Part shown: positions 11,040-34,208 of the stretch, piece by piece | How the letters are laid out: each line of letters opens with the position of its first letter | Position numbering within the stretch: the stretch's first letter is position 1 | DNA from: Candidatus Micrarchaeota archaeon | Lineage (GTDB): Archaea > Micrarchaeota > Micrarchaeia > Micrarchaeales > Micrarchaeaceae | Length of the DNA: 36,904 nt | Direction: 5' to 3' | NCBI GenBank assembly: GCA_964390895.1 | Contig: CAYMJD010000001.1 | Coordinates: forward strand, 1-36,904 | Program-made: the position numbers and the translations under genes | Notes under the pieces: model-generated | The model's input: the letters and a program-made list of their open reading frames with translations, nothing else | Databases searched by the model: none | Told to the model about the DNA's origin: nothing

Positions 11040-11153
11040 GAGACCACCACATTTTTTAATTGTTTTAGGGTATTTATGAAATAGAAAGCTTAAAAGGTTT
11101 TTCAACAGTGCCCTTAAAGCGATGTTAGAAGCATTGTCAAGAGGTAACAGAGC

Positions 11154-17473: not shown

Positions 17474-17811
17474 GCGGCCTCCTTTATCGCCGTGAGCATC
17501 TTCTGCAGCTCGTCCGCGGAAAACCCTTTCCTCTCTGATGCAAGGACCTGCTTTAGGAGAGGCTCGCCCTTCGGCCTTATGTCTATGAGCTTCGTTATGG
17601 TGTCGCTCTTCAGGAGCTTGAGCTCATCCAGCCTCTTCCTAAGCTTCTCATACTGCTGGTCCGTAAGCTTGAACTTCTCGGCATGCTCCAAAGCGATCTG
17701 CTGCTCGTATATCGGTTCTTTCTTCTTCCTCCTGCCCTCGAGTATCTTCCATGTCACATGCAATGGGACGCTGCCGTTGTCTTTCGACTCTTTTCCTATC
17801 ATTTGTATCAC
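17470..17811 (-). CDS. rpoF: DNA-directed RNA polymerase subunit Rpo4 (RpoF, Rpb4 homologue)
   Basis: The 113-aa size, helical HRDC-like C-terminus (LKSDTITKLIDIRPKGEPLLKQVLASERKGFSADELQKMLTAI) and conserved rpoF-DUF655 synteny support the call. Confidence 0.65.
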   Translation of the reverse strand: MIQMIGKESKDNGSVPLHVTWKILEGRRKKKEPIYEQQIALEHAEKFKLTDQQYEKLRKRLDELKLLKSDTITKLIDIRPKGEPLLKQVLASERKGFSADELQKMLTAIKEAA

Positions 17812-17889
17812 TGGGTTAACCTTTGAGTATTTAATAGTTGCATATTATATTACTCTAACAAGGCATAAAAACGTTTTTAGGGTTTTTGT

Positions 17890-18798
17890 ATGGATCCAAA
17901 GGTTGCCTACGAGAGCACCCTCAAAGAAGTGAAGAAGCACATAGCTGGCAAGGGGGACATAATAGAGCTCATGTTCATAGCGATCGTCGCAAACGGGCAT
18001 GTCCTCTTAGAGGGGGTTCCGGGGGTTGCGAAGACAACTATGGCGAAGACGCTGGCCGACGTCATAAACGCCACCTTCAGAAGGATACAGGGAATGCCAG
18101 ACCTTGACATAAGGGATATAATAGGCTACACATACGTAGATGACGCCAACAGCATCGTGCTCAAGAAAGGGCCTATATTCACCAACATACTGCTAATAGA
18201 CGAGTTGAACAGGGCACCTCCGAAGACCACCACCGCGCTCCTCGAGGCGCTGGAGGAGCGCCAGGTAACGATCTCGAACCAGACGCTGCAGCTGGAGAGG
18301 CCGTTCATAGCGATGGCGACGCAGAACCCATTGAACATAGAGGGCACCACCTCTCTCCCCAAAGTTCTCGCTGACAGGTTTCTGATGCGCCTTGCAGTCA
18401 CATATCCAGAAGAGCAGGATGAGGAGGACATACTGAGGCTGAAGGAGCGCGAAGAAACAGTTGTAACGAACAAGGTGCTCGAGACAAAGGACATACTCGA
18501 CATACAGTCACAGCTCAACACAGTCAACCTAAGTGATGATGTCGCAGATTACATAACAAGGCTGGTCAGGGCTACGAGGACGGACATACACGTAGTCATG
18601 GGAGGGAGCCCGAGGGCCGACATAAGCTTCATGAGGTGTGGGAAGGCGAAGGCCTTGATAGAAGGCAGAAAGGAGGTCAGCATAGACGACATAAAGTTCC
18701 TCGCGAAGCCGATACTGAGCCACAGGATAGTGGTCAGGTCCACCGGGGGCATAGGCGTCAACGGAGTGATCGATGGGCTGGTCGCGACCTTGCGCTAG
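17890..18798 (+). CDS. MoxR-family AAA+ ATPase
   Basis: HVLLEGVPGVAKTTMAKTLA (Walker A), ILLIDELNRAPPKTTTALLEALEERQVT (Walker B/sensor), FIAMATQNP and GGSPRADISFMRCGKA are the canonical MoxR/AAA_3 pattern. The stop lies 10 nt before the first pilin-like gene. Confidence 0.9.
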   Translation: MDPKVAYESTLKEVKKHIAGKGDIIELMFIAIVANGHVLLEGVPGVAKTTMAKTLADVINATFRRIQGMPDLDIRDIIGYTYVDDANSIVLKKGPIFTNILLIDELNRAPPKTTTALLEALEERQVTISNQTLQLERPFIAMATQNPLNIEGTTSLPKVLADRFLMRLAVTYPEEQDEEDILRLKEREETVVTNKVLETKDILDIQSQLNTVNLSDDVADYITRLVRATRTDIHVVMGGSPRADISFMRCGKAKALIEGRKEVSIDDIKFLAKPILSHRIVVRSTGGIGVNGVIDGLVATLR

Positions 18799-18808
18799 CG
18801 GTGTAACA

Positions 18809-19282
18809 ATGCACAACCACAAAGCACAAAGCGCGGTCGAGTACCTAACTACGTACGGCTGGGCGATAATGATAATCGCAATCGTGCTCTCTGTAATATT
18901 CTACTTCGGGGTTTTCAGCCCGGGGAGATTCATCAACACGCAGTGCATATTCCCCGCGGACTTCTCCTGCCTGAACAGCTTCATGTCCACGAACGGCGTA
19001 ATAGTTATCAACATACAGCAATCCACACCATACACGATAAACATAAAAGCATACGGATGCAACACAAACCCGGTGTACACTACAATGACGACCCCCGCGA
19101 ACCAGATATCGGTCTTGATAGGGTCCAAGACAACTCTCTCGATACAGTGCTACAACGGCACGAACGCGTTCTCGGGGAGCGTCGGCACGCTCTTCAACGG
19201 GTACATAATACTAAATTACACGGACGTGCCTACCGGCTTCAACAAGGGGGTATTCGGCACGGTAGTTGAGAAGATCAGCTGA
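18809..19282 (+). CDS. type IV pilin-like protein with class III signal peptide (candidate major pilin)
   Basis: The N-terminus MHNHKA|QSAVEYLTTYGWAIMIIAIVLSVIFYF has a short basic leader, Q at +1, the (Q)S-x-x-E-Y-L motif of the archaeal class III signal peptide family and a hydrophobic helix. The product is small (157 aa) with a Ser/Thr/Asn-rich beta-type body. I chose the ATG at 18809, preceded by GGTG, over the track start 18773, which overlaps moxR. Confidence 0.8.
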   Translation: MHNHKAQSAVEYLTTYGWAIMIIAIVLSVIFYFGVFSPGRFINTQCIFPADFSCLNSFMSTNGVIVINIQQSTPYTINIKAYGCNTNPVYTTMTTPANQISVLIGSKTTLSIQCYNGTNAFSGSVGTLFNGYIILNYTDVPTGFNKGVFGTVVEKIS

Positions 19283-19294
19283 CGCGCTTTCCTC

Positions 19295-19338
19295 AAGAAG
19301 CTTCTTATTTATTCGTTTCTTTTTTATACTATAAAATA
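19295..19338 (+). terminator. palindrome plus T-tracts (candidate intra-operon terminator/attenuator) followed directly by a TATA-like box for the downstream adhesin gene
   Basis: aagaagcttctt (a perfect 12-bp palindrome, 19295-19306) is followed by atttattcgtttctttttt, which contains T-runs typical of archaeal termination signals. Then comes tatactataaaata (19325-19338), about 20 nt upstream of ATG 19354. Confidence 0.4.
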
Positions 19339-19353
19339 CAGGGCTGGTATCGG

Positions 19354-22092
19354 ATGGGCATACGCAAGAGGAAATCGCAGATATCCCTCGAATTCATGAT
19401 AGTGTACTCGTTCGTGCTTATAATATTCATAGTGGTCTTTGCGCTGATAACCCTGCAGGGGTCGTCCTCGATGGCTGCAGAGAGCTCTACCTCGCTGCAG
19501 CTGACTACCCAAAACATAGCTAGCGCAATCGACCGTGCACTGGCATCGGGCAACGGCTTCAACATCACAATGCCGCTCGCCGGGAGCCTCCTAAACGCGC
19601 CGTACAACCTCTATATATCCTCTACTGGCGTTGTCTTCGCGAACATGAGCATAGGGACGCAGAGCGTCAATGCGAGGGCGTTCAGCAGCGCGCGCAGCCT
19701 TAACATAAATGGGAGCCTTCTCCCATCAAGCACAAACACAATAAAGGTTTACAAGGTCTCTACAAACATAGGCACATTCTCTGTAGCGAATTATTACGGC
19801 ACCGTATACATAGATACCCCAGCGCCAAGCACGGTCAATATAACGAATTCAATGCAGGATAGCGTCTTTAATGTAAAATTCGGGAACTTCAATGGGCAGA
19901 CAAGCTACATCAATGTGGGTACAAATGGCCTTCCTATAGGCAACAGCATAAGGAGCGTATTCGCATGGGTCAACTGGAAAGGCGGCACAACCCAGCCCGC
20001 GATTTTTTACTATGGCACAAGGGCGAGTACGTATCAGGACGCAGGCTTATACATAAGCTCTGCTGGAAACGTAGCTTTTGACGGTTACACAACATATCCG
20101 GCAAGCAACCTTCCATTAACAACAAACAGCTGGCATTTTGTTGGATATACTTACAGCGGTGGCAGCAACGTGGTTGTCTACCAAGACAGCAACACGCCAC
20201 AAACATTAGCTTTGTCATCCGCATTGAATACAATACTGCCAGCCAGCGATGCAGCTGACATAGGAAAGCAGAGCAATGGGTTCACAGGGCAGCAGTTCCC
20301 AGGCTCGATTGCCAACATACAGGTATACAACAGCGTGCTCACATCAACACAGGTAAGCGCATTGTATGCGGCTGGCTATGGCGGCACGCCATTCTCAAAA
20401 AGCAATCTTGTAGCTTGGTGGCCGTTGAACTACAGCACAATAGATTATTCAGGCAGTTTGAATACAGGAAACGCAAAAAACGTCACATATACAGCAACAA
20501 CAACAGTAAAGCTACACAACACATTTATGGATGGTTCAAATGGCGCGGGCGCAAAGGTCGGCTTCATATCTAATGCAGCAAAGGTAAACAACACAAGGGT
20601 CGCGCTTGCCATAGCCGCGGACTCGAATGGCAATGCAACAGTCGTCATAAACTCCACATTTAACTCCACAAAGCAGAAGCTGTTTGTCAACGCGCTGAAC
20701 ATAAACAAGACGCTTGCTAGTAATGTTATCTCGTGGCTGCCCCTTGATGCGGGTTACGGCAACACAATATACGACCTCTCAGGGAACTACAACAACGGCA
20801 CATTCCAGAGCACAAGCAACTGGTTTTCTATGCCATCAAACGCCACAAATATTAGGACAGCGAGCTTCTCGAACAACGCGCAGATATCCGCCACGGTCCC
20901 AAGAATAAGCACAGCCGCAAACTCGATAAACACGGTAACATTCTGGATGAATTCAACATCGGCAAACGGAATCGCGCCGTTCGGCTTCCACAACTACAAC
21001 CTTTTCATAGGGTCAAACTGCCTGGGGTTCAACACCACAGGCAACGGAATATACGGCTTCAATTCTGTCGGGCTGCCGAACAGATGGCAGTTCATAGCAG
21101 CGGAGTTCTTTAATGGCGCTTATACAGCCAACTCCCTCATATATCTCAACGGAACACAGAAGACGCTCTCGCAGTGCACAGGCACAGCCTCGACCGGCAC
21201 AGCATCGACAGATGTTTATGTTTCTGGGTGGGGCAACAGCGCAAAGTACTACTTTACAGGCAACATAGCAAACCTTCAGATATACAACGCATCGTTGACC
21301 GCAGCACAGGTGCTTCAGCTCTACCGGCAGGGGATAAGCGGAGTGCCGCTCTACAACGCGAGCCTTGTATTGTGGCTGCCGCTTGACGGCAACACAATCG
21401 ATTACAGCAGCTCGCATGTGGCAAGCGCATCCTCAAATGTGCTATTCAAGAATTATAAGTACAACAGATTCAATTCAACAACAAGCGTGGCGAATTTCAC
21501 TGGGACAAACGCAATATATGCGGCCAAGGTCGCGTTCAACAGCCTTGCGTACAATTTCTCGGTCAACCAATGGTTCATGCTCAAGGTACAGGCCACCAAC
21601 GGAGTGATTAATGGTGGACAGAGTCCTGTCGTGGACATATACAACGGAATAACGAACAACGGGATAGGGGGAAGCCAGAACTTTGACTTCGGAGGGGGCT
21701 GGGCCGGAGGAACAAACAAAAACTTCGCATGGGGCGCATACTGGCCGACCAGCCTCCAGTTCTGCAGTACACCCTCAGGTACAATACAGACCGGTGTCTG
21801 GTATGACGCGCTTGTCGCAGTAAAAGGCTATACCAATGTGACAGTGTACATAAACGGGGTAAACCAGAAGAACTGCATACTGGCAGCTTCTCTATCAACG
21901 GTCGCGTCATACGGCACTAATCTCATGGTTGGTGTGGGGGTCAACCCAACAAACACAATACAGTATGGGGGCGTGTATGTTGCGGATGTGGAGGTATACA
22001 AAAGCACCCTCACCCAGGCGGAAGCTGCGCAGCTCTACCAACAGGGGCTGCCGTCGCACGACATTGTCAATGTATCATTGTGGTCCACATGA
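19354..22092 (+). CDS. giant pilin-like surface protein: class III signal peptide plus three LamG/concanavalin-like (Laminin_G_3-type) modules
   Basis: The N-terminus is MGIRKRKS|QISLEFMIVYSFVLIIFIVVFAL (QxSxE motif plus a TM helix). There are three modules, each ending in a G-x-IAN(I/L)Q(V/I)YN-x-x-LT-x-x-Q...LY motif followed by the linker (L/V)(V/L)xW(W/L)PL(N/D)G.. DYSG, which is characteristic of Laminin_G_3 domains. I counted about 23 N-x-S/T sequons by hand, and the protein has almost no Cys or charged residues. Confidence 0.85.
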   Translation: MGIRKRKSQISLEFMIVYSFVLIIFIVVFALITLQGSSSMAAESSTSLQLTTQNIASAIDRALASGNGFNITMPLAGSLLNAPYNLYISSTGVVFANMSIGTQSVNARAFSSARSLNINGSLLPSSTNTIKVYKVSTNIGTFSVANYYGTVYIDTPAPSTVNITNSMQDSVFNVKFGNFNGQTSYINVGTNGLPIGNSIRSVFAWVNWKGGTTQPAIFYYGTRASTYQDAGLYISSAGNVAFDGYTTYPASNLPLTTNSWHFVGYTYSGGSNVVVYQDSNTPQTLALSSALNTILPASDAADIGKQSNGFTGQQFPGSIANIQVYNSVLTSTQVSALYAAGYGGTPFSKSNLVAWWPLNYSTIDYSGSLNTGNAKNVTYTATTTVKLHNTFMDGSNGAGAKVGFISNAAKVNNTRVALAIAADSNGNATVVINSTFNSTKQKLFVNALNINKTLASNVISWLPLDAGYGNTIYDLSGNYNNGTFQSTSNWFSMPSNATNIRTASFSNNAQISATVPRISTAANSINTVTFWMNSTSANGIAPFGFHNYNLFIGSNCLGFNTTGNGIYGFNSVGLPNRWQFIAAEFFNGAYTANSLIYLNGTQKTLSQCTGTASTGTASTDVYVSGWGNSAKYYFTGNIANLQIYNASLTAAQVLQLYRQGISGVPLYNASLVLWLPLDGNTIDYSSSHVASASSNVLFKNYKYNRFNSTTSVANFTGTNAIYAAKVAFNSLAYNFSVNQWFMLKVQATNGVINGGQSPVVDIYNGITNNGIGGSQNFDFGGGWAGGTNKNFAWGAYWPTSLQFCSTPSGTIQTGVWYDALVAVKGYTNVTVYINGVNQKNCILAASLSTVASYGTNLMVGVGVNPTNTIQYGGVYVADVEVYKSTLTQAEAAQLYQQGLPSHDIVNVSLWST
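20911..21253 (+). repeat. copy A of a 343-nt LamG-core cassette duplicated between the two adhesin genes
   Basis: Manual alignment with 22928..23270 gave about 30 mismatches, no indels and a constant offset of 2017 nt. Perfect runs of 26-35 nt occur, e.g. acattctggatgaattcaacatcggcaaacggaat. Confidence 0.9.
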
Positions 22093-22628
22093 GGCTCTTT
22101 AAAATCCAGTTCTGGAGCTTTGACATCATCTTCGCGATAGTCATCTTCGCTATTGCGCTGACGATATTGGCATTCACGTGGTACAACGTGGGCACGCAGC
22201 TCTCTCTGGGATATGGCGCGGGCGCCACGCTTATGCAATTGCAGACCCAGTCTGTCTCGATGTCGCTGCTCTCACAGGGATCTCCGGCCAACTGGGAAAG
22301 CATAATCAACATCACGAACACGTCAACATGGAGCGGCGCCGGAATAGGCATAGGATCGATAAACAACACAATGATCTCGTCAAAGAAGCTTTATGCATTC
22401 ATTGCTATGTCGAACTACAGCTACCAGTCGACAAAGCAGCCACTGGGCGTTTCCTACGACTACTTCATAAGGATATTCAACAACAACATGAACATAACAA
22501 TAGGGAAAAACCCATCGCAATACGGTGCGCTGACGATCGATGTGGCAACGAAAAGCGCATACATAAACGGGCAGCCCGTGACAGTGAAAACTATCTTGTG
22601 GTCCAACACAACATTTGGTGTTAGCTGA
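22089..22628 (+). CDS. minor pilin-like protein (class III signal peptide)
   Basis: The N-terminus is MRLFKI|QFWSFDIIFAIVIFAIALTILAF and the body is Asn/Ser/Thr-rich. The ATG at 22089 forms an ATGA overlap with the upstream stop (the track start 22080 is also possible). Confidence 0.7.
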   Translation: MRLFKIQFWSFDIIFAIVIFAIALTILAFTWYNVGTQLSLGYGAGATLMQLQTQSVSMSLLSQGSPANWESIINITNTSTWSGAGIGIGSINNTMISSKKLYAFIAMSNYSYQSTKQPLGVSYDYFIRIFNNNMNITIGKNPSQYGALTIDVATKSAYINGQPVTVKTILWSNTTFGVS

Positions 22629-24385
22629 TGAGGAACTACAAAGGATTCATATTCTCTATCGACGCAACGATTGCGCTGATCGTTGCGGCCATAGCCGTAT
22701 CGATACTTCTATACATGAACTTCTCAGCTCCAAAGGGGCTCTTCTCGTCGACCAACGAAGCGGAGAGCCTGCTCCAGAACCTTCTCACGATAAAACTCAA
22801 GGATGCGCTTGCCAATGGGTTCATACCGCAGAAGTATCTGACACCATATATAGCGCAAGCAAATGGAACGCTTCTGGCGAAATTTTCTGGGACAGGCCAG
22901 GTGACAGCGAACGTGCTGCTGGTTACAACAGCCGCAAACTCGATAAACACAGTGACATTCTGGATGAATTCAACATCGGCAAACGGAATTGTTCCGTTCG
23001 GCTTCCACAACTACGACCTTTTCATAGGGTCGAACTGCCTGGGGTTCAACACCACGAGCAACGGAATCTATGGCTTCAATTCCGTTGGTCTGTCAAACAA
23101 GTGGCAGTTCATAGCAGCGGAGTTCTTTAATGGAGCATACACAGGCAACTCCCTCATATATCTCAACGGAACGCAGAAGACGCTCTCGCAGTGCACAGGA
23201 ACAGCATCGACCGGCACAGCATCGACAGATGTTTACATATCAGGATGGGGCAACAGCGCAAAGTACTACTTCAACGGAACCATAACAAATCTGCAGATCT
23301 ACAACATATCACTTTCGGCTCAGCAGATAACACAGCTCTACCAACAGGGGATAGGCGGCGCACCCATAACAACGCAAAACCTTGTGGCATGGTATCCCCT
23401 TAATGGCAACCCGGGGGATTATTCTGGACACAAGTACACGGGAACACAAACAAACCTGAACTACATAAAAGCGAATTTTATACCATTCAAATCATACAAC
23501 ATATCGCTGAATAGCTCTCTGCTGGAAACGATGGCCTCGCTTTACACCAACAATCAGGGAGCTTACGCATCGCTGATGCTCAATTACGTTGAGAATTCCT
23601 CTACAGTGGGCATACTTGTAAACAGCACGTTCGCCCCTGCAGTGAGCACCTCAGGCTTCAACGGGGCTAACTCTTATGTTTATGCGCCTGTGGGCTCTTG
23701 GCTTGGCACAAACCACAGCCTCACAGCCGCAGCATGGTTCTACAGCCCGTCAGGGGGAGGCCCAGTCTTCGGTGTTACGAGCAGCCCCCCAGGCGCAGGC
23801 TGGAACTCCCCGTTCATAAGTGTAGATTCAAACGCGCTAATCTATGGATGGATAAACGGCTCTACCAAGCTCACCTACCAGGGGAAATTCAACACATGGT
23901 ATTTCGTAGCTGTATCGTACAACAAGACTGCAAAGGTCGTCACACTCTTTGTCAATGGCCAGCAGTCATCTAACACGATCGGCAAATACGTTACATTGGG
24001 GGCTTTCGATTACTTCACCACATACATAACAGGAACAAAGCCCGCAAACGTGCCCAGCTATTTTAATGGGAATATAGCAAACCTTCAGATATACAACACA
24101 TCGCTCACAGCGCAGCAAATATCGCTGCTCTACCAGAGGGGAATTGGCGGAATTCCGATATACAATTCAACGCTCTCCGGATGGTGGCCCCTGGATGGCA
24201 ATGCAAACGATTATTCCGGAAACAACAACGACGGCATACCCAACAATATGGTTTACGGTGCCTCTACCTACATACCTTCAGCTCTGGGCGCAAGCTATGA
24301 GGTAAGCAAGGCAACAGCGCCAATGGCGATAAACATAAATGGCAACGTTCTTTTAAGGAACGTGAGCGTGATCACATGGCGATAG
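22628..24385 (+). CDS. large pilin-like surface protein: class III signal peptide plus two LamG/concanavalin-like modules
   Basis: The N-terminus is MRNYKG|FIFSIDATIALIVAAIAVSILLYM. Two modules carry the terminal motifs GTITNLQIYNISLSAQQITQLYQQG and GNIANLQIYNTSLTAQQISLLYQRG, plus WYPLNGNPGDYSG and WWPLDGNANDYSGNNNDG linkers. The first module is a near-copy of a module in 19354..22092. Confidence 0.85.
   Translation: MRNYKGFIFSIDATIALIVAAIAVSILLYMNFSAPKGLFSSTNEAESLLQNLLTIKLKDALANGFIPQKYLTPYIAQANGTLLAKFSGTGQVTANVLLVTTAANSINTVTFWMNSTSANGIVPFGFHNYDLFIGSNCLGFNTTSNGIYGFNSVGLSNKWQFIAAEFFNGAYTGNSLIYLNGTQKTLSQCTGTASTGTASTDVYISGWGNSAKYYFNGTITNLQIYNISLSAQQITQLYQQGIGGAPITTQNLVAWYPLNGNPGDYSGHKYTGTQTNLNYIKANFIPFKSYNISLNSSLLETMASLYTNNQGAYASLMLNYVENSSTVGILVNSTFAPAVSTSGFNGANSYVYAPVGSWLGTNHSLTAAAWFYSPSGGGPVFGVTSSPPGAGWNSPFISVDSNALIYGWINGSTKLTYQGKFNTWYFVAVSYNKTAKVVTLFVNGQQSSNTIGKYVTLGAFDYFTTYITGTKPANVPSYFNGNIANLQIYNTSLTAQQISLLYQRGIGGIPIYNSTLSGWWPLDGNANDYSGNNNDGIPNNMVYGASTYIPSALGASYEVSKATAPMAININGNVLLRNVSVITWR
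22928..23270 (+). repeat. copy B of the 343-nt LamG-core cassette
   Basis: See copy A. Weaker similarity continues for about 90 nt further, to about 23360 in this copy and about 21345 in copy A. Confidence 0.9.
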
Positions 24386-25923
24386 TGAAAAACAGGAGAG
24401 GGCTTCTGCTCTCTTTGCTGACGATAGTGCTTTTCATACTTATGCTGGGGGAGCTTTTCACTTACGCAGTAATAGATATAAACTTTTCGCAAATATCGCA
24501 GCAATCAGCAGTGCTCATGGGAGCTGGGAGCTTTGCGCAAACAGTCAACACCGGAATGCAGGGCTTTCTGCAGGCCTCTTTGGACAAAGCAGTGGCGCTC
24601 TATTCGGCAAGCGGCTGCCTGGGAAACTTCACAGCAACAATCAAGGGGATGATCAGCACCGGGAATGTGGGGCCATCATGCACAACACCAACAAACAGCC
24701 TCAGTAGCGCGACACTTTCAAAGTATGTGGGCGCGCTGCAGAACCAGGCTGTGCAGCAGCAGGTCGCTCTCACAATTGCAAACCCCGTCTTGAATGTCTA
24801 TCAATCTACCCCAGCAAGCGTTGCCGCCTCATACAGCGCTTTTGTGACAATAAACTCCGCAGCAGGGACATTCAGCTACCCCCTCAATGTCAAGGCAACA
24901 GCGCAGACCTCCCTCAACATGCTGTCAGTTCCGATAACGCTCACAAACTCGCAGGCTTCTGCACTCCCAGCCAATACCCAGATAACCGTCAGCTTCAACT
25001 CGCAGGCTTATCGCCCATACGAGAAGGCCAACCTAGGGAACATACGCTTCTATTACAATTCAACGGCGCTTTACAGCTGGTGCGAGGCGAACTGCGCAAC
25101 CACCGCAACAAGCAACTCGATTTTCTGGGTCAAGATTCCTGTATCGATAGGCGCCGGCAACAGCCTGGCAATAAACATGTACATGCTGCCAAAGGGCGTT
25201 GATTTCGACAAGGTTTTTGCAGGGGAGGCGCCCCAACTCAGCCCAACATACGCCCAATACGACAACGGCGCAAACGTGTTCGTTGTTTATAATAACGGCC
25301 TGTCGGCCTTTGCAATCAGCCAGACAGGAACTGGAGGCTCCGGCCCCTCTGCAACAGCAAGCGCGCCGTCCCCATACACGTACGCGATAACAGGTTCAGT
25401 AGCCGGTGGGGTTGGTGGCGCAAACACATGGACCATAAACGGCGAGACGGCAACAGCGCTTCCGACCTCATATATAGCGCAGATGCTTGTGCAGACAACA
25501 GGTTCCTCTCCGTTGACTGACATGCTTACAAACTTCCAGGGGGTCTCGGGCCAATTCTACGTGTTCAGGTTTGACATGCGCAGCGCGGACTTTGACCTGA
25601 TCGGCAAGTATCCATCTGGAAGTTCCATCACACTGCCCGTCGCAACCAGCTCTTCCACATCAAGCACAGGAACATGGTACCAGATGACAGCCGTTGACAA
25701 TGCCGATAGCCTCTCACTCTACAAATCCACATCGTTCAGCCTATCAAGCTTCGGCACGCAGGAGGTTGCGCCAACCACTGGGGCAGGCTTTACTGGGGGG
25801 GGCATCGGCGTTACCACAGACGGCGCCGCGTCCACAGGCTACTGGACGATTATACTTGTCAGAGTCTACCCGCCAAGCAACACCATGCCGACTGCAGCAT
25901 TCGGCTCTCCCAGCGTGACATAA
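24376..25923 (+). CDS. pilin-like surface protein with DUF2341-like and beta-sandwich C-terminal region
   Basis: The N-terminus is MAIVKNRRG|LLLSLLTIVLFILMLGELF. The central segment PITLTNSQASALPANTQITVSFNSQAY..ANLGNIRFYYNSTALYSWCEAN....IFWVKIPVSIGAGNSLAINMYMLPKG resembles the DUF2341 signature (D-x-R-F..., WVK-(V/I)-P, i-Y-M-Y-y-G). A 10-nt overlap links it to the upstream gene. Confidence 0.7.
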   Translation: MAIVKNRRGLLLSLLTIVLFILMLGELFTYAVIDINFSQISQQSAVLMGAGSFAQTVNTGMQGFLQASLDKAVALYSASGCLGNFTATIKGMISTGNVGPSCTTPTNSLSSATLSKYVGALQNQAVQQQVALTIANPVLNVYQSTPASVAASYSAFVTINSAAGTFSYPLNVKATAQTSLNMLSVPITLTNSQASALPANTQITVSFNSQAYRPYEKANLGNIRFYYNSTALYSWCEANCATTATSNSIFWVKIPVSIGAGNSLAINMYMLPKGVDFDKVFAGEAPQLSPTYAQYDNGANVFVVYNNGLSAFAISQTGTGGSGPSATASAPSPYTYAITGSVAGGVGGANTWTINGETATALPTSYIAQMLVQTTGSSPLTDMLTNFQGVSGQFYVFRFDMRSADFDLIGKYPSGSSITLPVATSSSTSSTGTWYQMTAVDNADSLSLYKSTSFSLSSFGTQEVAPTTGAGFTGGGIGVTTDGAASTGYWTIILVRVYPPSNTMPTAAFGSPSVT

Positions 25924-25930
25924 TAAGATA

Positions 25931-26920
25931 TCAGAGGGCACCTATGTTCGCGAAGAGCGCGCCTATCACGCTCCCTACCACAACATAGATCAGCAGCCCC
26001 ACGATTATGAAGACAGGCACATACCTCAATCCCTTTACTATGGAGCCGTTCGACATAGCAGACATTATCAGGCTTGAGAACCCTGTTATGATTATTATCG
26101 CGATGATCGAGAAGTTGCCATATTGGCTAACGGTTATCTGCGGCGCTCTGGGCTTGAGAAAAGATAGGCCACTGCTTGGAATGCTCCCCAGGTTCTGCAC
26201 TGATATCTGAGACCACACCTTCGTTGTTATGGTTATCATCTGGCTCGTAAGGCCGTATAGGACAGGGGCGGCTATGATCCCTGCGAACACTATGAATATG
26301 CTGTACATGAGCATCTGGCCCGCTATCTCCTTCTGTGCCATGTGCTGCGCCCTGAGGTCCTTGGAAAGCTGGTTAAGGAGGTCTGCTATTGCCCCGCCAT
26401 ACCTTATGGACTCGGTTATCATGCGCACCGAATGCTGGAGCTGTATGGACCTGTATTTCCTTCCGAGCTCGTTGAGGGCCAGCTCCATCGTCTCTCCGCT
26501 GAAGAGCTTCCTGGCGAGCTCCTTCATGTCCTCACTTAGGGGAGCGAACTCCGGCTTCGCTGCCAGCAGCAGCGACCTGTCAAGCGATATGCCGCTCCTC
26601 AGGTTCGCGGCGGTGAGCATAAAATAGTCAGGCAATATCTCCTCCACCCTCGTTTTCCTCCTGTCTATCCTGTATTCCAGTATGAGGTATATGATTGCGG
26701 CGAACAGGACCCATCCGGTTACTCCCAGGCCGCCGGCGAGCAGTATCTGGACGTGCATGGCGAGCGAGAGGAGCGACGCCACCGCTACGAATATGACTGC
26801 GCCGGGCACCACCATCAATTCCACGAGCTTGTTGATGCTCCATTTAACTCCGGCGAGCGCCATCTCCCCCGAGAGCCTCAACGCGAGATTCCTTGAGACA
26901 AACCTTTCGAAGTTGACCAT
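25931..26920 (-). CDS. type IV filament membrane platform protein, T2SSF domain (TadC/FlaJ-half-like)
   Basis: The 329-aa protein has N-terminal TM segments. Its cytoplasmic T2SSF-like helical domain reads LPDYFMLTAANLRSGISLDRSLLLAAKPEFAPLSEDMKELARKLFSGETMELALNELGRKYRSIQLQHSVRMITESIRYGGAIADLLNQLSKDLR. C-terminal TM segments follow. Confidence 0.8.
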   Translation of the reverse strand: MVNFERFVSRNLALRLSGEMALAGVKWSINKLVELMVVPGAVIFVAVASLLSLAMHVQILLAGGLGVTGWVLFAAIIYLILEYRIDRRKTRVEEILPDYFMLTAANLRSGISLDRSLLLAAKPEFAPLSEDMKELARKLFSGETMELALNELGRKYRSIQLQHSVRMITESIRYGGAIADLLNQLSKDLRAQHMAQKEIAGQMLMYSIFIVFAGIIAAPVLYGLTSQMITITTKVWSQISVQNLGSIPSSGLSFLKPRAPQITVSQYGNFSIIAIIIITGFSSLIMSAMSNGSIVKGLRYVPVFIIVGLLIYVVVGSVIGALFANIGAL

Positions 26921-26924
26921 GGCA

Positions 26925-27977
26925 TCACATCGTGAAAACAGGCCTCGCCGACCTTATGAGCTGCAGGAACACTATCTGCAAGAAGAGTATCCCGACGAGC
27001 ACGGCGTCGAGTATTATCGGAGTTACAGCGAATATGGAGACAAACGTAGTGAGTATCGTTATGACGGCTATCCCCATGCTTGGGAAGATTATGCCGAAGA
27101 GCATGTAGAACATGGCGATCGCGTTGAACCTCTGGCCATACCTCCTCATCTCTATCATGCGCTCCTGCGACAGCTCGTCTATTATGCTCTGCAGCGCAGA
27201 GACTATGTCTGCGCCGGTCTTTATGCTCACGCTCGCCTGGAGCATCAGCCTCTTGAACGAGGCGCTCTTCGATGTCTCCAGTACGTCATCTATCGCATCG
27301 CCAAGCGAGCTCCCCAGTTGCACCTTCTGCACTATCTTCGCGAACTCCTTGCTCGCCTCGCCGTAGCCTGTGCTGACCATGGTTACTGCGTTGAACAAGG
27401 GCATGCCCGACCTCAGTGATATTATCATGTCCCGCGCGGCGAACATTATGTCCCTGTCAATCAGCTTGACTGCGTGCAGCCCCTTCTGCTTGGGGAAATT
27501 GAGGAAGTTGTGCAGCCCGACATAGAATACGCCTATGCCTACGGCGAAGCCGAGTATTATGCTTTCTGGCAGCTCCATCCCGATGCGCATGAACACGATT
27601 ATAAGAGAAAAGCCTACGACGATCGCCAGCGTTATCGAGGCAATCACCATGCGCTTCACGAAGTCATAGAGGCTCTGCCTTATCCCCTGCTCGCGCAGCG
27701 CCACATCGAGCCCCTTCTGCTTTGCGCCCAAGCTCTCTATGTAGAGCCTGAAGCGGGTCGGCCTCTTCGGGGTTCGTTCTGTTATCTGCTGCGCGGTCTT
27801 CTCCTCCACCTGCGATAGAAGGGGTTTCTGCTGGGTTCCATGCTGCGCATCGCCCCCCTTTTGCTGCTGAGCCTCCGCCTTTTCCCCCTTCTTGAAGAAC
27901 GAGAACCTGTTCGGCTTGGGCTCGAGCTCTATGGTTTTGCCGTCGACCTCTATTGTCCTCTTCTTTTTGTTGAACAC
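26925..27977 (-). CDS. type IV filament membrane platform protein, T2SSF domain (TadB/FlaJ-half-like)
   Basis: The 350-aa protein has TM segments flanking a T2SSF-like domain. That domain reads IMFAARDMIISLRSGMPLFNAVTMVSTGYGEASKEFAKIVQKVQLGSSLGDAIDDVLETSKSASFKRLMLQASVSIKTGADIVSALQSIIDEL. It lies 4 nt upstream of the second platform gene. Confidence 0.8.
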   Translation of the reverse strand: MFNKKKRTIEVDGKTIELEPKPNRFSFFKKGEKAEAQQQKGGDAQHGTQQKPLLSQVEEKTAQQITERTPKRPTRFRLYIESLGAKQKGLDVALREQGIRQSLYDFVKRMVIASITLAIVVGFSLIIVFMRIGMELPESIILGFAVGIGVFYVGLHNFLNFPKQKGLHAVKLIDRDIMFAARDMIISLRSGMPLFNAVTMVSTGYGEASKEFAKIVQKVQLGSSLGDAIDDVLETSKSASFKRLMLQASVSIKTGADIVSALQSIIDELSQERMIEMRRYGQRFNAIAMFYMLFGIIFPSMGIAVITILTTFVSIFAVTPIILDAVLVGILFLQIVFLQLIRSARPVFTM

Positions 27978-27989
27978 TACAATCCCTGC

Positions 27990-28652
27990 TCACATACGGA
28001 GTGCTGCAGCCGCCTCGTCGAGCCTGCTGTTCCTGAGCTCCCAGAGCGCGCTTGCCGGGTCAGGCATCTTGAGCCTTCCCTTTGCATAAAGCTTCCTCTC
28101 TTTCGCTACCATCGCCTTCAATCCGTCAACCTCCTTTTTGATTATGCCGATGTGCTCGTCGTCGAATGCGTTGCTCCCTGCGCCTGTTATTATCTTCTCA
28201 AGCTCGCCTATCTGGTCAGATACTGTGAGGTTGGGTAGCACGAGCTGCTCCTTGCGCTGCTTCTGCGTTTCCCCTCCGAGCTCAAGCTTGGGCATCTTGA
28301 TATGCCCGACGATCTTTGCAAGCTCGTCCCTCGCGCTCTTCGCCTCCTTCTCTATGTACGGCAGCGCGACGCCCATCTTTTTCTGGGCGGTCTGCACGGC
28401 CTGCACGACCTGCTGCTCCCCGGCGAGTGCGCTCTTTTTCGAAGCAGAAGCCTTTTTCGCCTCGAAAGCCGTTATTAGCCTAACGAGCTCCTGGTAGCTG
28501 CGCACCTCTTGTATTTCTTCCTTGGGATCCATCGTCTGACCTATGCCTATCGTGGTGAGCTGGCGCTCGGAGGCCTCAAGCTCAAGCTTCCCTACCTGTT
28601 CGGCGAGCTCTTCATAAGACGGGTTTTGGTCGCCGACCAGCTCATCTGACAT
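27990..28652 (-). CDS. hypothetical coiled-coil protein encoded between the secretion ATPase and the platform genes
   Basis: The 220-aa product is highly charged (E/K/Q/A-rich) with heptad-like sequence and no TM segment or signal peptide. It is tightly packed in the operon, with 20-nt and 12-nt spacers. Confidence 0.6.
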   Translation of the reverse strand: MSDELVGDQNPSYEELAEQVGKLELEASERQLTTIGIGQTMDPKEEIQEVRSYQELVRLITAFEAKKASASKKSALAGEQQVVQAVQTAQKKMGVALPYIEKEAKSARDELAKIVGHIKMPKLELGGETQKQRKEQLVLPNLTVSDQIGELEKIITGAGSNAFDDEHIGIIKKEVDGLKAMVAKERKLYAKGRLKMPDPASALWELRNSRLDEAAAALRM

Positions 28653-28672
28653 ACCTTAAAACCTCTATAAAC

Positions 28673-30181
28673 CTATTTAAACATGTCTGGCGAGAACTTC
28701 TCGTCGCCTTTTACTATGTCCAACACCCTCTTCCTGTCTTTGTAATAATTGGCCACGACGCTGCCAGCGTCGTTGACGGATATTACGTCGTTGTCCGCCA
28801 TCCACGACAGGATCCTGGCCTTGGTCGCAGCGTCGTCCTCTATCTCGTTCTTGGTCAGCCCCCCATAGAGCGTTATTGTTTCTGACAGGTGTATCAAATC
28901 ACCAACCTGGTTGAACCTGTCGGTGCGTATGTCCCAGCGGTAGTTGACGTTCGTGTCGCCGCTCTTCATTATCTCTGCGAACTCGAGTGTCCTCCTTATG
29001 CCCCTCGTCCTGTGCCTGAACTGCACGAGCACGGCGCCGAGCGCGTTGAGGAGAACCTTCGGCATGCCGATGGGTGGGTTGGACATCCTTATTATCGTGT
29101 CGTAGGCGTTGTCAGCGTGCACGGTGCCATAAACAGCATGCCCCGTATGTATGGCCTCGAACATCGTCTCGGCGTCTTTCTGCGTCCTTATCTCCCCTAT
29201 GAGAACTATGTCCGGCCTCTGCCTCAATGCGTTTATCATAAGATCGTAAAGCGTCACCTCTCCCTTGCCCTCCGGGTTCGGCATCCTTGTGAGCATCGGC
29301 ACCCACTGGAAGAAATCAGGCAGCGAAAGCTCCCTCGTTTCCTCTACAGAGATTATCCTCCTCGATGGGTTGAAGAATATGCTCATCGCGTTGAGGAAGC
29401 TGGTCTTCCCGCTTGCGGTGCCCCCTGATATGAGGAGGCTTATCTCGTTCTCTATGCACGTCCACGTCAGCCCTGCCATGAACGGGTCTATCGTGTGGTT
29501 CTTTATCAATGCAGGCATTGTCCAGGGGTTCTTGGCGAACTTCCTGATTGTTATCGTGTTGCCCTTCTGCGACACAGGGAACAGCGTGGCATTGACCCTC
29601 GAGCCGTCGAGCAGCTCGGCGTCCATGAGCGGCACCAGGTTGTTTATCTCACGGCCGACGCCCCTGCCTATCTGCTCCGCTTTGTTGTAAACCTCATCTT
29701 CTGTTGCAGGCTTTATGTTCGTCTTGCACCACGAGAAGTCCCTGTGGAAGACCCATATGTACTCGTTGGAGCTGTTTACCGCAATCTCTTCCAAAGCGTC
29801 GTCGGCAAGCAGCGCCTCCAGGTCTCCCAGCCCGAGCATCATGTTCATTATGTAGGAAATGAGCAGCTTCTTCGCCTCTGCATCTATGCCAGGAAGGTAC
29901 TTGTTGATGAGCATGCTGCTTGCCTCTATGTACTTGTTCTTCATCTCGTCCAGATAGCCAGGGTCGTTTATCCTGTTTGGGTCCATAGGCACTATCGATA
30001 TCAGGTCCCCCCTGAACGACATAAGGAGCAATCTTGTCGCCTGGCTTATCCCCCTGAAAGTCACTTCGTAAAGCGGCGCGAACTCGTCCGTACGCGTGTA
30101 TATGCGCACGTTGACCTCTGTCCCGCGCGCGTTCAGCTTGTAGGTTCCCAATATCCTCGCGTTGTCTTCCCTGTCTTCCAT
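28673..30181 (-). CDS. type II/IV secretion system ATPase (FlaI/TadA/EpdL/VirB11 family)
   Basis: Walker A is LLISGGTASGKTSFLNAM, the Asp box is IISVEETRELSL, Walker B is RPDIVLIGEIR and the His box is TGHAVYGTVHA. The N-terminal domain is FlaI-like. Confidence 0.92.
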   Translation of the reverse strand: MEDREDNARILGTYKLNARGTEVNVRIYTRTDEFAPLYEVTFRGISQATRLLLMSFRGDLISIVPMDPNRINDPGYLDEMKNKYIEASSMLINKYLPGIDAEAKKLLISYIMNMMLGLGDLEALLADDALEEIAVNSSNEYIWVFHRDFSWCKTNIKPATEDEVYNKAEQIGRGVGREINNLVPLMDAELLDGSRVNATLFPVSQKGNTITIRKFAKNPWTMPALIKNHTIDPFMAGLTWTCIENEISLLISGGTASGKTSFLNAMSIFFNPSRRIISVEETRELSLPDFFQWVPMLTRMPNPEGKGEVTLYDLMINALRQRPDIVLIGEIRTQKDAETMFEAIHTGHAVYGTVHADNAYDTIIRMSNPPIGMPKVLLNALGAVLVQFRHRTRGIRRTLEFAEIMKSGDTNVNYRWDIRTDRFNQVGDLIHLSETITLYGGLTKNEIEDDAATKARILSWMADNDVISVNDAGSVVANYYKDRKRVLDIVKGDEKFSPDMFK

Positions 30182-31507
30182 TCAATCAACCTTTTTCCCG
30201 CTGTCCTTCCCCCATAGTTTTCTCTTCCTGGGCTTTTCCTGCCCTTTCTTGACGCCTGTGGCAACCTTACCAATCTTCCTCGTTCCGGTATCTATGCCGC
30301 TCTCCATGTCAACTATGTCTCCCTCTATCGCCCCGGCCTTCTTGGACACGTCGGATATCCTCTTCACGCGCTCCCTGAGCGTCTGCTCCCCCACGTTTAT
30401 GGCCGAAAGATCCTGCTTGAGCTTGCGTATCTGCTCCCTGTCGGCCTGTATCCTCTTCTCTATCTCGGCAGAGCTGCTCTGTATCTCGTAGATCACGTCA
30501 TAGAACTTCGAAGAGTCGCCGAAGGCGTTCTTGAGGTTCGTTATGCCTTCAAGCACTATTGACGAGCTTTGGCCCAGCATCCGCGCACCGTCGGCCATCT
30601 CCTGGTGGCCCTTGGCGTAGGCGTCGTTGAATCTCTTAAGGCTGTCATTGAGCGCTTTCTTCTCCTTCTCCTGCTCCCTCCTGAAACCGTCCACCTCGGC
30701 CAGCACCGCCTTCGCCTCCTTTATCCGCTCCTTTAGGAGCTCTGACGCGCTCCTTATCTCCCTTGTATAGTCGCCTAGCTGCGCAGCGGCGTCGCCCCTC
30801 TGCTTCTCCATGTCCGCGCGTATACGCTTTACCTGTGCATCAAGCTCCGAACGCACCTCGTCGAAGCGCTTGTCCTTGTTTGAACGCATTGTTTCCGAAA
30901 GGGTTTCAAGTTTCTTCGATTCCTCGAATACCTGCTCTACGCGCTTCACAGCGTCGTCCATGCTTCCCGCAAGGCTTCCCGATTCTATGGTGCTTAGCTT
31001 AGCAAGCATCTCCGTGGCCTTCTTGTTGAGCGACTCATAGTCCCTCTCGAGCCCGTCCCTCATGGAGAAAACCGAGCTCTGCTGCTTCTGCACCTGCGCA
31101 TAGATGTTGTTCAATTCGTTGAGCCTGCTCCTTATCTCGGGCATCTTCTCCGAATAGAGCTTGTTCACGTCGCTTCCGCTGGCCTTCAGCGTGTCGAGCT
31201 TGGTGGAGACATCCTGGAGCTTTATGAGGTTCGTCTCAAGCTCGCTGTCGAGCGCCTCCTGCTGTATCTTCAGCCGCGCTTCGGCGCTCTTCGCCTCTCC
31301 GGGAGCGACCTCGCTGGACGACACGTACATCCTTCCCAGCTCGTACGTGATCTTGACGAGACCTCCCTTCTCGAGTATCTTCGACCATTCCTCCACTATG
31401 GTGGGAGGGGTCTTCAAATCCAGAGCTATCGCATTGAGCTCCAGCCTGCCCTTCTCGCTGAGCAGCTCAAGCAACGAATCGATCGTGGTTCTCTGCTCAT
31501 CCGCCAT
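30182..31507 (-). CDS. hypothetical protein: N-terminal winged-helix-like domain plus about 350-aa coiled coil, first gene of the ATPase operon
   Basis: The N-terminus is MADEQRTTIDSLLELLSEKGRLELNAIALDLKTPPTIVEEWSKILEKGGLVKITYELGRMYV (wHTH-like). A long E/K/L/S-rich heptad sequence follows, then a basic tail (KKGQEKPRKRKLWGK). The stop abuts the ATPase start codon. I chose the start at 31507; the track start 31579 adds a Cys/basic-rich 24-aa extension. Confidence 0.65.
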   Translation of the reverse strand: MADEQRTTIDSLLELLSEKGRLELNAIALDLKTPPTIVEEWSKILEKGGLVKITYELGRMYVSSSEVAPGEAKSAEARLKIQQEALDSELETNLIKLQDVSTKLDTLKASGSDVNKLYSEKMPEIRSRLNELNNIYAQVQKQQSSVFSMRDGLERDYESLNKKATEMLAKLSTIESGSLAGSMDDAVKRVEQVFEESKKLETLSETMRSNKDKRFDEVRSELDAQVKRIRADMEKQRGDAAAQLGDYTREIRSASELLKERIKEAKAVLAEVDGFRREQEKEKKALNDSLKRFNDAYAKGHQEMADGARMLGQSSSIVLEGITNLKNAFGDSSKFYDVIYEIQSSSAEIEKRIQADREQIRKLKQDLSAINVGEQTLRERVKRISDVSKKAGAIEGDIVDMESGIDTGTRKIGKVATGVKKGQEKPRKRKLWGKDSGKKVD

Positions 31508-31678
31508 GAATACACACTTTATACATAACCTAACAACTTTTTTAGCCCTTTGTATTGCCCGCATAGAGGAAAATTGCAAGGATTAATGGTGGCGCATCTG
31601 CCTCCCCCAGATGGCTCCCGAAAGGCATCCAAATAACAGAGGGTATCCTTTGTAGCATAGCCTTAAATAAGTTTTGTG

Positions 31679-31709: not shown

Positions 31710-32075
31710 GTGAGCGTGATGGAAAAGACAAGCGCGGAGATGAAGGACTTCATAACCAAGGAGGTGCGCCACGCTGTGCTGAAGGTGGTGCTCCTGAAAA
31801 GGATACAGCGCAAAAAGAGCTATTCCTACCAGCTCTTCAAGGACATATGCGAGCACCACAGGTTCTCGGGCCCAGACAAGGCAGACATGAAGAACGACGT
31901 ATACAACACCATAAGCTCGCTCGAGAATTCTGGATACATAAAGGCGAGCGTGGAGACAGAAGCGAACAGGGTGAAGAAGTATTACAGGATAACAAAAAAA
32001 GGGGAAAGGGCGCTCCTCGAAACGCAGAAGATATTCAAGAATGCTGTAAAGGAGATATCAAGGCAGCTCTCCTGA
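31710..32075 (+). CDS. PadR-family transcriptional regulator
   Basis: SYSYQLFKDI....DVYNTISSLENSGYIKASVETEANRVKKYYRITKKGERALLE is the characteristic PadR winged-helix pattern. The start is GTG 31710 or ATG 31719. Confidence 0.8.
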   Translation: MSVMEKTSAEMKDFITKEVRHAVLKVVLLKRIQRKKSYSYQLFKDICEHHRFSGPDKADMKNDVYNTISSLENSGYIKASVETEANRVKKYYRITKKGERALLETQKIFKNAVKEISRQLS

Positions 32076-33076
32076 TGCGGTTTTTCATGGGCAACATAAT
32101 AGAGATAAAAAACCTTGTCAAGAGGTTTGGCAACCTCACCGCAGTGGACAACATAAGCCTAAACATAGGGGGAGGCAAGATATACGGCCTCCTGGGGCCG
32201 AACGGCGCGGGCAAGACAACCACCATAAGCCTTGTCCTCGGGATAGAGAGGCCCACGAGCGGCCGCATATTCGTGGATGGCATGGACAACATGGTCCACA
32301 GGTCGAAGATTAAGCAGATCATAGGCTTCATGACCCAGGAGACGATTGTCGATGCAGACCTTACCGCTTACGAAAATCTTGAGATTGCCGGAAGACTGTA
32401 TCACATCTACGGGGAGGAGCTAGAGGGGGCGATAAGGAATGCGTTGGACGAGGCAGAGCTCACAGAATTCGCGTACAAGAAAGCTGGCTCGTTCTCAGGA
32501 GGTATGAAAAGGCGGCTCTATCTGGTAAAGTCGATGATACAGAGGCCGAAGATACTCATACTCGACGAGCCGACAACAGGGCTCGACGTGCATAACAGAG
32601 TCCAGATGTGGGAGCACATAAAGGAGCTCAACAAGCGCGGGATTACCATAATACTGACGACGCAGTACCTAGAGGAGGCGGACCAGCTCTGCAACGAGAT
32701 ATCCGTAATTGACCACGGGAAGATAATAGCTACAGGAACTCCATCAGAGCTCAAGAAGGCGGTATCGAAGGGCCAGATCCTCGAGATAATAACCACCAAG
32801 GAGACATGCGAGAGGGTCTCAAGGCTTCTAAAGTCGAAGTTCTCGCTTGCGGCAACCGCAAAGGACGACAAGGTCGAGGCGTTCATAGAGAAGGAACCGT
32901 TCCAGACGTTCTCGAGGATAATGGACGTGCTTGTCAGGGAGAAGCTGCCGATAATATCCATAAGCATGCACCTTCCGACAATGGACGACGTCTTCATAAA
33001 GCTGACGGGCTCATCGCTGAGGGACAAGGTCGGGGAGCAGAAGTCCGGGCGCGACAGGGTTTTCCTGAATAGGTGA
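32075..33076 (+). CDS. ABC transporter ATP-binding protein (ABC-2/DrrA-type)
   Basis: Walker A is GLLGPNGAGKTTT, the Q-loop is MTQE, the signature is FSGGMKRRL, Walker B is ILILDEPTTGLD and the H-loop is TTQY. The track ORF 31847..33076 carries a spurious N-terminal extension across padR. I chose ATG 32075 (TGATG overlap with the padR stop); ATG 32087 is an alternative. Confidence 0.9.
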   Translation: MRFFMGNIIEIKNLVKRFGNLTAVDNISLNIGGGKIYGLLGPNGAGKTTTISLVLGIERPTSGRIFVDGMDNMVHRSKIKQIIGFMTQETIVDADLTAYENLEIAGRLYHIYGEELEGAIRNALDEAELTEFAYKKAGSFSGGMKRRLYLVKSMIQRPKILILDEPTTGLDVHNRVQMWEHIKELNKRGITIILTTQYLEEADQLCNEISVIDHGKIIATGTPSELKKAVSKGQILEIITTKETCERVSRLLKSKFSLAATAKDDKVEAFIEKEPFQTFSRIMDVLVREKLPIISISMHLPTMDDVFIKLTGSSLRDKVGEQKSGRDRVFLNR

Positions 33077-33080
33077 GCGC

Positions 33081-34199: not shown

Positions 34200-34208
34200 G
34201 GTGAATAT

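Follow-up and report, generated by a model that had tools for sequence, protein, structure and literature searches.

The system treated here has described relatives among the archaeal type IV pili (T4P). Clade 1 of these pili, that of the Methanococcus Epd pili, has an ATPase, two TadC genes and approximately five minor pilins, along with a pair of large DUF2341 proteins that are putative tip adhesins (Makarova et al. 2016, PMC4858521). Two TadC genes also occur in many clade 2 loci and are, therefore, not exclusive to clade 1, and pairs of MoxR/GvpN and vWA proteins as well as a coiled-coil protein have been noted near other archaeal T4P loci (PMC4858521). Golyshina et al. (2017) assigned genes MIA14_0170-0177 of Candidatus Mancarchaeum acidiphilum (Mia14) to a T4P of the group found in Methanococci, Methanothermobacteria and Thermococci, with LamG-like proteins linked to it and with key components common to many Micrarchaea (PMC5498576). 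Thin pilus-like filaments have also been seen on a cultured Micrarchaeote and were assigned to no genes (PMC11329633). We analyzed a stretch of 36,904 nucleotides from a Candidatus Micrarchaeota archaeon (contig CAYMJD010000001.1 of assembly GCA_964390895.1; hereafter, the window), which contains two convergent operons for a surface filament: one for pilin-like proteins (p169, p912, p182, p585 and p515), and one for an assembly ATPase, two platform proteins and two cytoplasmic proteins (cc465 and cc220). This locus is very probably a lineage-typical adhesive T4P of Micrarchaeota, of Epd-like (clade 1) design and orthologous to MIA14_0170-0177.

Nine genes of the window recur in unchanged order in the Mia14 locus. 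Its core genes encode a coiled-coil protein of 444 amino acids (aa), an ATPase of 558 aa, a 233-aa protein and T2SSF proteins of 340 and 328 aa; the convergent genes encode LamG proteins of 598 and 614 aa, a 179-aa protein and a LamG protein of 893 aa (MIA14_0177, the orthologue of p912, with LamG in 3 stretches). Two differences were found. Neither MoxR nor p169 lies beside the Mia14 locus, where an HSP20 gene is present instead, and the Mia14 protein at the position of p515 carries LamG and not DUF2341. The coiled-coil gene MIA14_0169 and the 233-aa gene MIA14_0171 are not listed as components in PMC5498576. An initial annotation of the window, made from the sequence alone, had labeled the locus Epd-like, which agrees with the published group of the Mancarchaeum orthologue. 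The same annotation did not recognize the gene combination as a described system; that part does not hold, as a paper of 2017 had reported the orthologous genes as a T4P to which LamG proteins are linked (PMC5498576).

We then compared the window proteins by tblastn with 73 loci obtained from a scan of species-representative genomes, nearly all of which are labeled Micrarchaeota and which include the complete genome of Candidatus Micrarchaeum sp. A_DKE. Relatives of the ATPase in these Micrarchaeota-type loci were 57-75% identical to the window protein (52% in L072, a cut-off locus), and the DPANN host that had been considered earlier was thus borne out, the host being a member of Micrarchaeota. 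Relatives of this ATPase number in the thousands. The best 120 were 61-78% identical along their full length, except for one fragment of 96% identity, and the named organisms among these 120 were Micrarchaeota, including Candidatus Mancarchaeum acidiphilum and ARMAN-1. ATPase relatives were also observed in bins labeled Methanothrix, Acidiferrales bacterium or Baltobacteraceae bacterium (L016, L018 and P0023); their gene order is of the Micrarchaeota type, and the contigs probably belong to Micrarchaeota and were binned wrongly.

A five-gene core, consisting of cc465, the ATPase, cc220 and the two T2SSF genes, was found in the same order and on the same strand in 63 of the 73 loci, and the core genes that were missed were almost all at contig ends. 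A p182 homologue and LamG pilin genes converged on this core in 39 of the 46 loci that had at least 6.5 kb of sequence beyond the second T2SSF gene. As for the neighbors singled out by the initial annotation, both genes that it called coiled-coil were found along with the ATPase (69 of 73 loci each); moxR was not a conserved neighbor.

The gene map is given in Table 1. A mechanical list of open reading frames (ORFs) returned all 11 genes of the initial annotation with the coordinates and domains claimed for them. The arrangement as two convergent operons was also confirmed, with the stop codons of p515 and platform protein 2 lying 7 nt apart, and genes follow closely upon one another in the pilin operon, where the ATG of p182 overlaps the stop codon of p912 as ATGA. 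Domains were called by Pfam and NCBIfam profile scans of translated ORFs. For the window, the scan set was 29 selected ORFs, all of at least 169 aa, with smaller ORFs outside the scan. AAA_3, Laminin_G_3, T2SSF and T2SSE were assigned as expected, and DUF2341 remained sub-threshold in the window protein.

Table 1. Features of the pilus locus and its MoxR neighbor in the window (arrows mark putative prepilin cleavage sites)
Feature	Position	Strand	Description
MoxR gene	17890-18798	+	302 aa; AAA_3 (6e-47) and AAA_lid_2 (Pfam)
p169 gene	18773/18809-19282	+	157 aa from ATG 18809; candidate major pilin; putative site HKA↓QSAVEYL
p912 gene	19354-22092	+	Giant pilin-like protein; 3 LamG-type lectin modules; putative site RKS↓QISLEF
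LamG-module repeat, copy 1 (~300 nt)	20911-21210	+	Inside p912
p182 gene	22080/22089-22628	+	Small pilin-like protein, minor pilin; putative site FKI↓QFWSFD
p585 gene	22628-24385	+	Pilin-like protein; 2 LamG modules; putative site YKG↓FIFSID
LamG-module repeat, copy 2	22928-23227	+	Inside p585
p515 gene	24376-25923	+	Pilin-like protein; weak DUF2341 module; putative site RRG↓LLLSLL
Platform protein 2 gene	25931-26920	-	329 aa; single T2SSF domain; TadB/TadC- or EpdJ/K-like
Platform protein 1 gene	26925-27977	-	350 aa; single T2SSF domain; K/Q-rich N-extension
cc220 gene	27990-28652	-	Conserved cytoplasmic protein, predicted to be helical; between ATPase and platform genes
Assembly ATPase gene	28673-30181	-	502 aa; T2SSE; FlaI/TadA/GspE2 superfamily
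cc465 gene	30182-31504 (longest ORF to 31579)	-	Winged helix-turn-helix and long coiled coil; first gene of core operon

The ATPase matched T2SSE (2.6e-33). Three motifs could be read in its translation, namely Walker A (GGTASGKT), Walker B (DIVLIGE) and a His box (HTGH). Its best NCBIfam model was the FlaI equivalog NF058587, and some sources call its relatives "flagellar protein FlaI," so that a divergent archaellum serving motility had to be considered. However, the FlaI score was 242.7 bits, far under the cut-off of 550, and the ATPase also fell below the cut-offs of the TadA model TIGR03819 (164.7 bits, cut-off 373) and the BasE equivalog model. In PDB matches, the ATPase was about equally distant from the structures of afGspE (200 bits), FlaI (180 bits) and CpaF (158 bits), and no closer to FlaI than to afGspE. 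Domains of FlaH/KaiC, FlaF/G, FlaC/D/E/X and archaellins were absent from the scanned window ORFs and from Mia14, an organism reported to be without archaellum genes (PMC5498576), and Pfam domains of this kind were likewise missing from the genes called in L074, L106 and L107. The platform, moreover, is split into two genes, and the pilins are giant lectin fusions. Taken together, these data effectively refute an archaellum, in agreement with the initial annotation.

The two platform genes are adjacent, and each product has a single T2SSF domain (9e-17 for protein 1 and 9e-15 for protein 2) and multiple transmembrane-like segments, which upholds the resemblance claimed earlier to EpdJ/EpdK and TadB/TadC. 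Protein 1 was found in 68 of the 73 loci. Protein 2, which has five transmembrane-like segments, was found in 67 loci at 43-59% identity. Platform protein 1 also has a cytoplasmic N-extension of approximately 100 residues, rich in K, Q and E, before its first membrane segment; its paralogue has none. The ATPase or cc220 may dock on this extension.

Bacterial Tad/Flp systems resemble the locus in having an ATPase of the FlaI/TadA superfamily, a platform split into two single-T2SSF proteins (TadB and TadC) and an adhesive function, which is presumed for the locus. In contrast to those systems, the window ATPase is under the TadA cut-off noted above, the Pfam scan of the locus proteins found no Flp pilin or secretin domains, TadZ and TadG are missing, and the host is archaeal.

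The Epd pili of Methanococcus maripaludis (EpdA-E, EpdJ/K/L and EppA) share with the locus two TadC-like platform genes and one ATPase, and their approximately five minor pilins with class III signals would correspond to the pilin-like proteins of the window. Large DUF2341 or lectin proteins may be a further likeness to Epd and clade 1, in which the major pilin often has a gene that stands by itself (PMC4858521). The window has five pilin-like genes, and the large ones carry mostly Laminin_G_3, which is another concanavalin-A-like lectin domain. The p515 family fits the clade 1 picture: the DUF2341 match of the homologue closest to p515, that of L064, is significant (39.5 bits, above the cut-off), and other proteins at this position have LamG in three stretches. 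The locus differs from Epd in four respects: it has no gene for EppA (a 9-TM peptidase) or the FleN/MinD ATPase, which are frequent in clade 1 loci, and neither does the Mia14 locus; its adhesin modules, mostly LamG, form one protein with a putative prepilin signal that precedes them; it has, in addition, two cytoplasmic proteins specific to the lineage; and the candidate major pilin is approximately 145 aa, compared to approximately 70 aa in Methanococcus.

Each of the five pilin-like proteins had exactly one hydrophobic segment, located at the N-terminus, and the pilin candidates were rich in N, S and T and poor in K and E, a composition typical of exported proteins. The initial annotation had proposed prepilin-like N-termini for all five. 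Each proved to have a family of Micrarchaeota relatives that keep its N-terminus, far beyond chance. The family consensus was K-x↓QSAMEYLxTYGWA for p169, with Q at +1 and E at +5 invariant; [KR][SA]↓QIALEF for p912, with E at +5, kept in 8 distinct relatives; [KR][A/G/M/L]↓QFWSFD for p182, with D at +6 and the core QFWS(F/I)D invariant in 32 distinct relatives; K[GA]↓F(I/V)FT(L/V/M)DA for p585, with D at +6, kept in 11 distinct relatives; and [KR]G↓(I/V/L)LLTL for p515, with G at -1 in all 26 relatives. Throughout the five families, K or R at -2 was nearly invariant, and four of the five had an acidic residue at +5 or +6. This conservation fits type IV pilin signals, at which the proteins would presumably be cleaved. 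Class III signals consist of a short basic leader with a small residue at -1 and a stretch of about 20 hydrophobic residues, in many cases with an acidic residue near +5.

The putative sites combine a Q at +1 that is invariant in three families (p169, p912 and p182) with a permissive -1 position, where A, G, S, L, M and I all occur. We take Q at +1 to be a feature of EppA substrates. An invariant Q at +1 together with a permissive -1 is unusual for substrates of the FlaK/PibD type and may reflect a peptidase whose specificity is relaxed or resembles that of EppA. An A24-family prepilin peptidase of Mia14 is encoded elsewhere in its genome (MIA14_0570; PMC5498576).

Laminin_G_3 was matched in 3 stretches of p912 (4e-24) and in 2 stretches of p585 (9e-25). 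These proteins possess 23 and 17 N-X-S/T sequons, respectively, and p912 has one N-terminal transmembrane-like segment. Both join a prepilin-like N-terminus with Laminin_G_3, in keeping with the LamG-fused pilins of the initial annotation. Modular type IV pilins with lectin modules occur elsewhere; in PilC of Streptococcus sanguinis, for instance, a concanavalin-A/LamG-like module is joined to a class III signal and a pilin helix and is carried on the filament. The window proteins belong to another domain of life and are much larger than PilC; they have as many as three LamG modules, there are three genes of this kind in the operon, and the likeness is one of architecture only. A weak NCBIfam match to TafC of Haloarcula hispanica (PMC11821415) over the LamG-like stretch was also considered and rejected as a sign of kinship: the scores were 52 and 32 bits against a cut-off of 410, and Tafi are Tat-dependent and not type IV filaments, which leaves a shared domain only.

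The genes for p912 and p585 have in common a LamG module of approximately 300 nt, with a nucleotide identity of 92%. In L001, the closest relative, the two orthologous copies (15274-15573 and 18059-18358) are 98% identical to each other. When translations were compared, the module differed between the window genome and L001. As the paired copies are alike within a genome and the module differs between genomes, the sequences suggest that LamG adhesin modules have repeatedly been homogenized within genomes, as by gene conversion. Homogenization of a LamG module between two pilin genes appears to be unreported.

The most conserved of the small pilin-like proteins was p182, found in 43 of the 73 loci at 37-59% identity by tblastn. 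Relatives of p169 were present in only 8 of the 73 loci, often as stand-alone genes and in varied positions, which included a place after a T2SSF gene (L045, L046 and L050); among the MoxR loci treated below, a p169-like gene lies after MoxR in L076, L082 and L086. These varied positions match the stand-alone habit of major pilin genes in archaeal T4P (PMC4858521).

The presence of lectin modules also bears on what the apparatus would be used for. The pseudopili of type II secretion systems (T2SS) and of competence run on the same core of ATPase, platform and pilins, and the locus might, accordingly, encode a pseudopilus-type secretion device or a device for exchange of DNA or other macromolecules between symbiont and host (T2SS-, Com- or Ups-like) that is not mainly an adhesin. 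DNA exchange through T4P has been speculated upon, and extensive lateral transfer with the host has been reported (PMC5498576). However, three of the five pilins bear LamG or DUF2341 modules of the lectin type, as adhesins typically do; genes for a nuclease, a DNA-binding surface protein or secreted cargo were not linked to the locus; and the locus has no paralogue that could be a retraction ATPase. We, therefore, regard an exchange device as quite improbable and retain the adhesive pilus as the preferred explanation.

MoxR requires separate treatment. The initial annotation had counted it as part of the system and had spoken of a single 13.7-kb machine. Several observations could be read in this way. 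The MoxR gene is on the same strand as the pilin operon, and its stop codon precedes the p169 ATG by 10 nt; a p169-like pilin follows MoxR in the three loci named above; and MoxR/GvpN and vWA proteins have been linked to thaumarchaeal T4P loci (PMC4858521). MoxR would then be a chaperone-like AAA+ component that matures or inserts pilins and is co-transcribed with p169 and the pilin operon, making the whole a MoxR-assisted variant of T4P. In contrast, the 31 metagenome loci that matched MoxR, of which approximately 26 contained orthologues of 61-70% identity, included none with p912, p182, p585 or p515. The divergent DUF655 neighbor was kept in 17 of these approximately 26 orthologue loci, as in the window, yet the genes downstream of MoxR varied; in L082, for instance, the p169-like gene is followed by an apparent seryl-tRNA synthetase gene. 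Nor does MoxR lie beside the L001 and Mia14 pilus loci. The gene after the p912 homologue is, by eye, similar to A-type ATPase subunit E in L001, and is the HSP20 gene in Mia14. No vWA/DUF58 partner was found near MoxR in the scanned window ORFs.

With DUF655 kept, downstream genes variable and no pilin operon linked, MoxR is probably an adjacent gene and not a conserved component of the pilus machine, and its participation as a component seems unlikely to us. A MoxR-p169 pairing restricted to one lineage is possible. Because MoxR is not a conserved component, the figure of 13.7 kb is overstated by about 0.9 kb.

Downstream of the MoxR orthologues in L079, L081, L088, L089, L092, L093, L097 and L104 we observed a four-gene membrane cluster. 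Its first gene encodes a signal-peptide protein of approximately 125 aa with a weak match to the TrbC/VirB2 pilin (E=0.058 in L097), and the others encode proteins of approximately 607, 243 and 400 aa, for which Pfam gave nothing significant. Unrelated genes follow MoxR elsewhere, and alternative sets of surface or membrane genes seem to occupy the slot downstream of it. On the other side of MoxR in the window, a gap of 416 bp (17474-17889) separates it from the divergent DUF655 gene; a 156-aa ORF in this gap (17462-17932) is of low complexity and looks spurious.

Unlike MoxR, the two cytoplasmic proteins travel with the core. Both cc465 and cc220 are rich in K and E and have no transmembrane segments. 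The conserved start of cc465 is MADEQRTT at 31504. Its N-terminal domain of approximately 60 aa is conserved, with T6, I8, D9, G19, W40 and L44 invariant, and recurrent weak matches to winged helix-turn-helix families were obtained among 31 members (MarR in 14, DeoR in 12 and TrmB in 10), as was a weak match to LrpA (E=0.023). An AlphaFold2 model built on an alignment of 6 sequences has an N-domain of the order H-H-H-E-E, itself of moderate confidence, followed by helices from 68 to 417, with a mean predicted local distance difference test (pLDDT) score of 73. The remaining residues, approximately 350, form long helices and returned only generic coiled-coil matches in Foldseek and PDB profile searches (SMC/Rad50 arms, myosin and HR1 of the coronavirus spike); these were set aside, as none was a specific relative such as FlaX or HP0958.

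For cc220, no Pfam match and no PDB profile match was obtained. Word-index homologue searches were insensitive, returning 2 matches for cc220 and 6 for cc465. An exhaustive phmmer search placed the cc220 family at 201 clusters at 50% identity, all of them labeled "hypothetical." The C-terminal motif LVLPxLSxxDQIxELExI is conserved, and even the most distant members are encoded between T2SSE and two T2SSF genes, behind a coiled-coil gene of approximately 410 aa. The protein is predicted to be helical, and its AlphaFold2 model (2 sequences) was of low confidence, with a pLDDT of 49.6. The initial annotation had described two coiled-coil proteins; cc465 has weak, recurrent winged helix-turn-helix matches and modeled long helices, and a coiled coil in cc220 is not established.

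Proteins of these two kinds are missing from the T4P components listed in PMC5498576 and PMC4858521. Since cc465 and cc220 strictly co-occur with the ATPase/platform module, they are conserved core components, and this appears to be unreported. Their role may be that of a scaffold or regulator. A bolder proposal is that the two are obligatory, unrecognized motor subunits found only in Micrarchaeota, as a FlaX-like scaffold or a DNA-tethered regulator, and that they define, together with the unusual prepilin site and the homogenized LamG modules, a distinct DPANN sub-type of T4P for host capture. We put this forward tentatively and consider it doubtful at present.

In the mechanism that we propose for the adhesive pilus, the five prepilin-like proteins would enter the membrane through the hydrophobic helix at their N-terminus, and a prepilin peptidase encoded elsewhere would trim them after the K/R-x motif. 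A hexameric T2SSE ATPase would dock on a heterodimeric platform, formed by the two single-domain T2SSF proteins, and polymerize the pilins into a filament. The major subunit would likely be p169 or its stand-alone paralogues, and p182, as a conserved minor pilin, would prime or cap the assembly. The heavily glycosylatable LamG/DUF2341 pilins p912, p585 and p515 would be displayed as lectin-like adhesins, which may bind glycans on the surface of a host archaeon. As cytoplasmic partners of the ATPase/platform module, cc465 and cc220 would act in scaffolding or regulation, and MoxR would be only a neighbor.

Several findings weigh against this explanation. The residue at -1 is often not G or A (S, L, M and I also occur), and a FlaFind-type core pattern fits only the p515 family (24 of 26 members) and no members of the p182 and p585 families. 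No prepilin peptidase (Peptidase_A24), FleN/MinD or EppA was found in the scanned window ORFs. The DUF2341 match of p515 is 16.9 bits, under the cut-off of 23.4. The assignment to clade 1 is that made in PMC5498576 for the orthologous locus of Mia14, whose ATPase is 63% identical. The absence of p169 from most related loci makes its role as major pilin a guess, and the filament and its part in host attachment are predictions from the genes.

The genes that flank the locus are archaeal housekeeping genes, namely aIF5B, DUF655, those for the arginyl- and aspartyl-tRNA synthetases (ArgRS and AspRS), and NDK. The cc465 end of the locus adjoins genes for an ABC-2 transporter pair and a CARDB/NPCBM_assoc surface protein (31847-35828). 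In L001, L003 and L004, the closest relatives, the arrangement is the same (52-73% identity), and these genes are possibly a co-inherited surface module. No Rfam family was matched anywhere in the window, and the sole find of a tRNA scan of the window was tRNA-Leu(CAG) at 6739-6823, outside the pilus locus. Four sizeable ORFs had no significant Pfam match (10200-11231, 9440-9988 and 740-1333 on the minus strand, and 35833-36708 on the plus strand); one of these, of 343 aa, gave only weak MazE/AbrB-like and winged-helix hints.

Both the type of locus and the linkage to LamG had already appeared in print in 2016-2017, and as a discovery the present locus adds little. Micrarchaeota and other DPANN archaea need physical contact with host cells. 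Two cultivated systems, Mia14 and A_DKE, are given targets by the locus: the LamG pilins, p182 and p169, and the two cytoplasmic proteins. Of the candidates for the contact apparatus, this locus is the most conserved.

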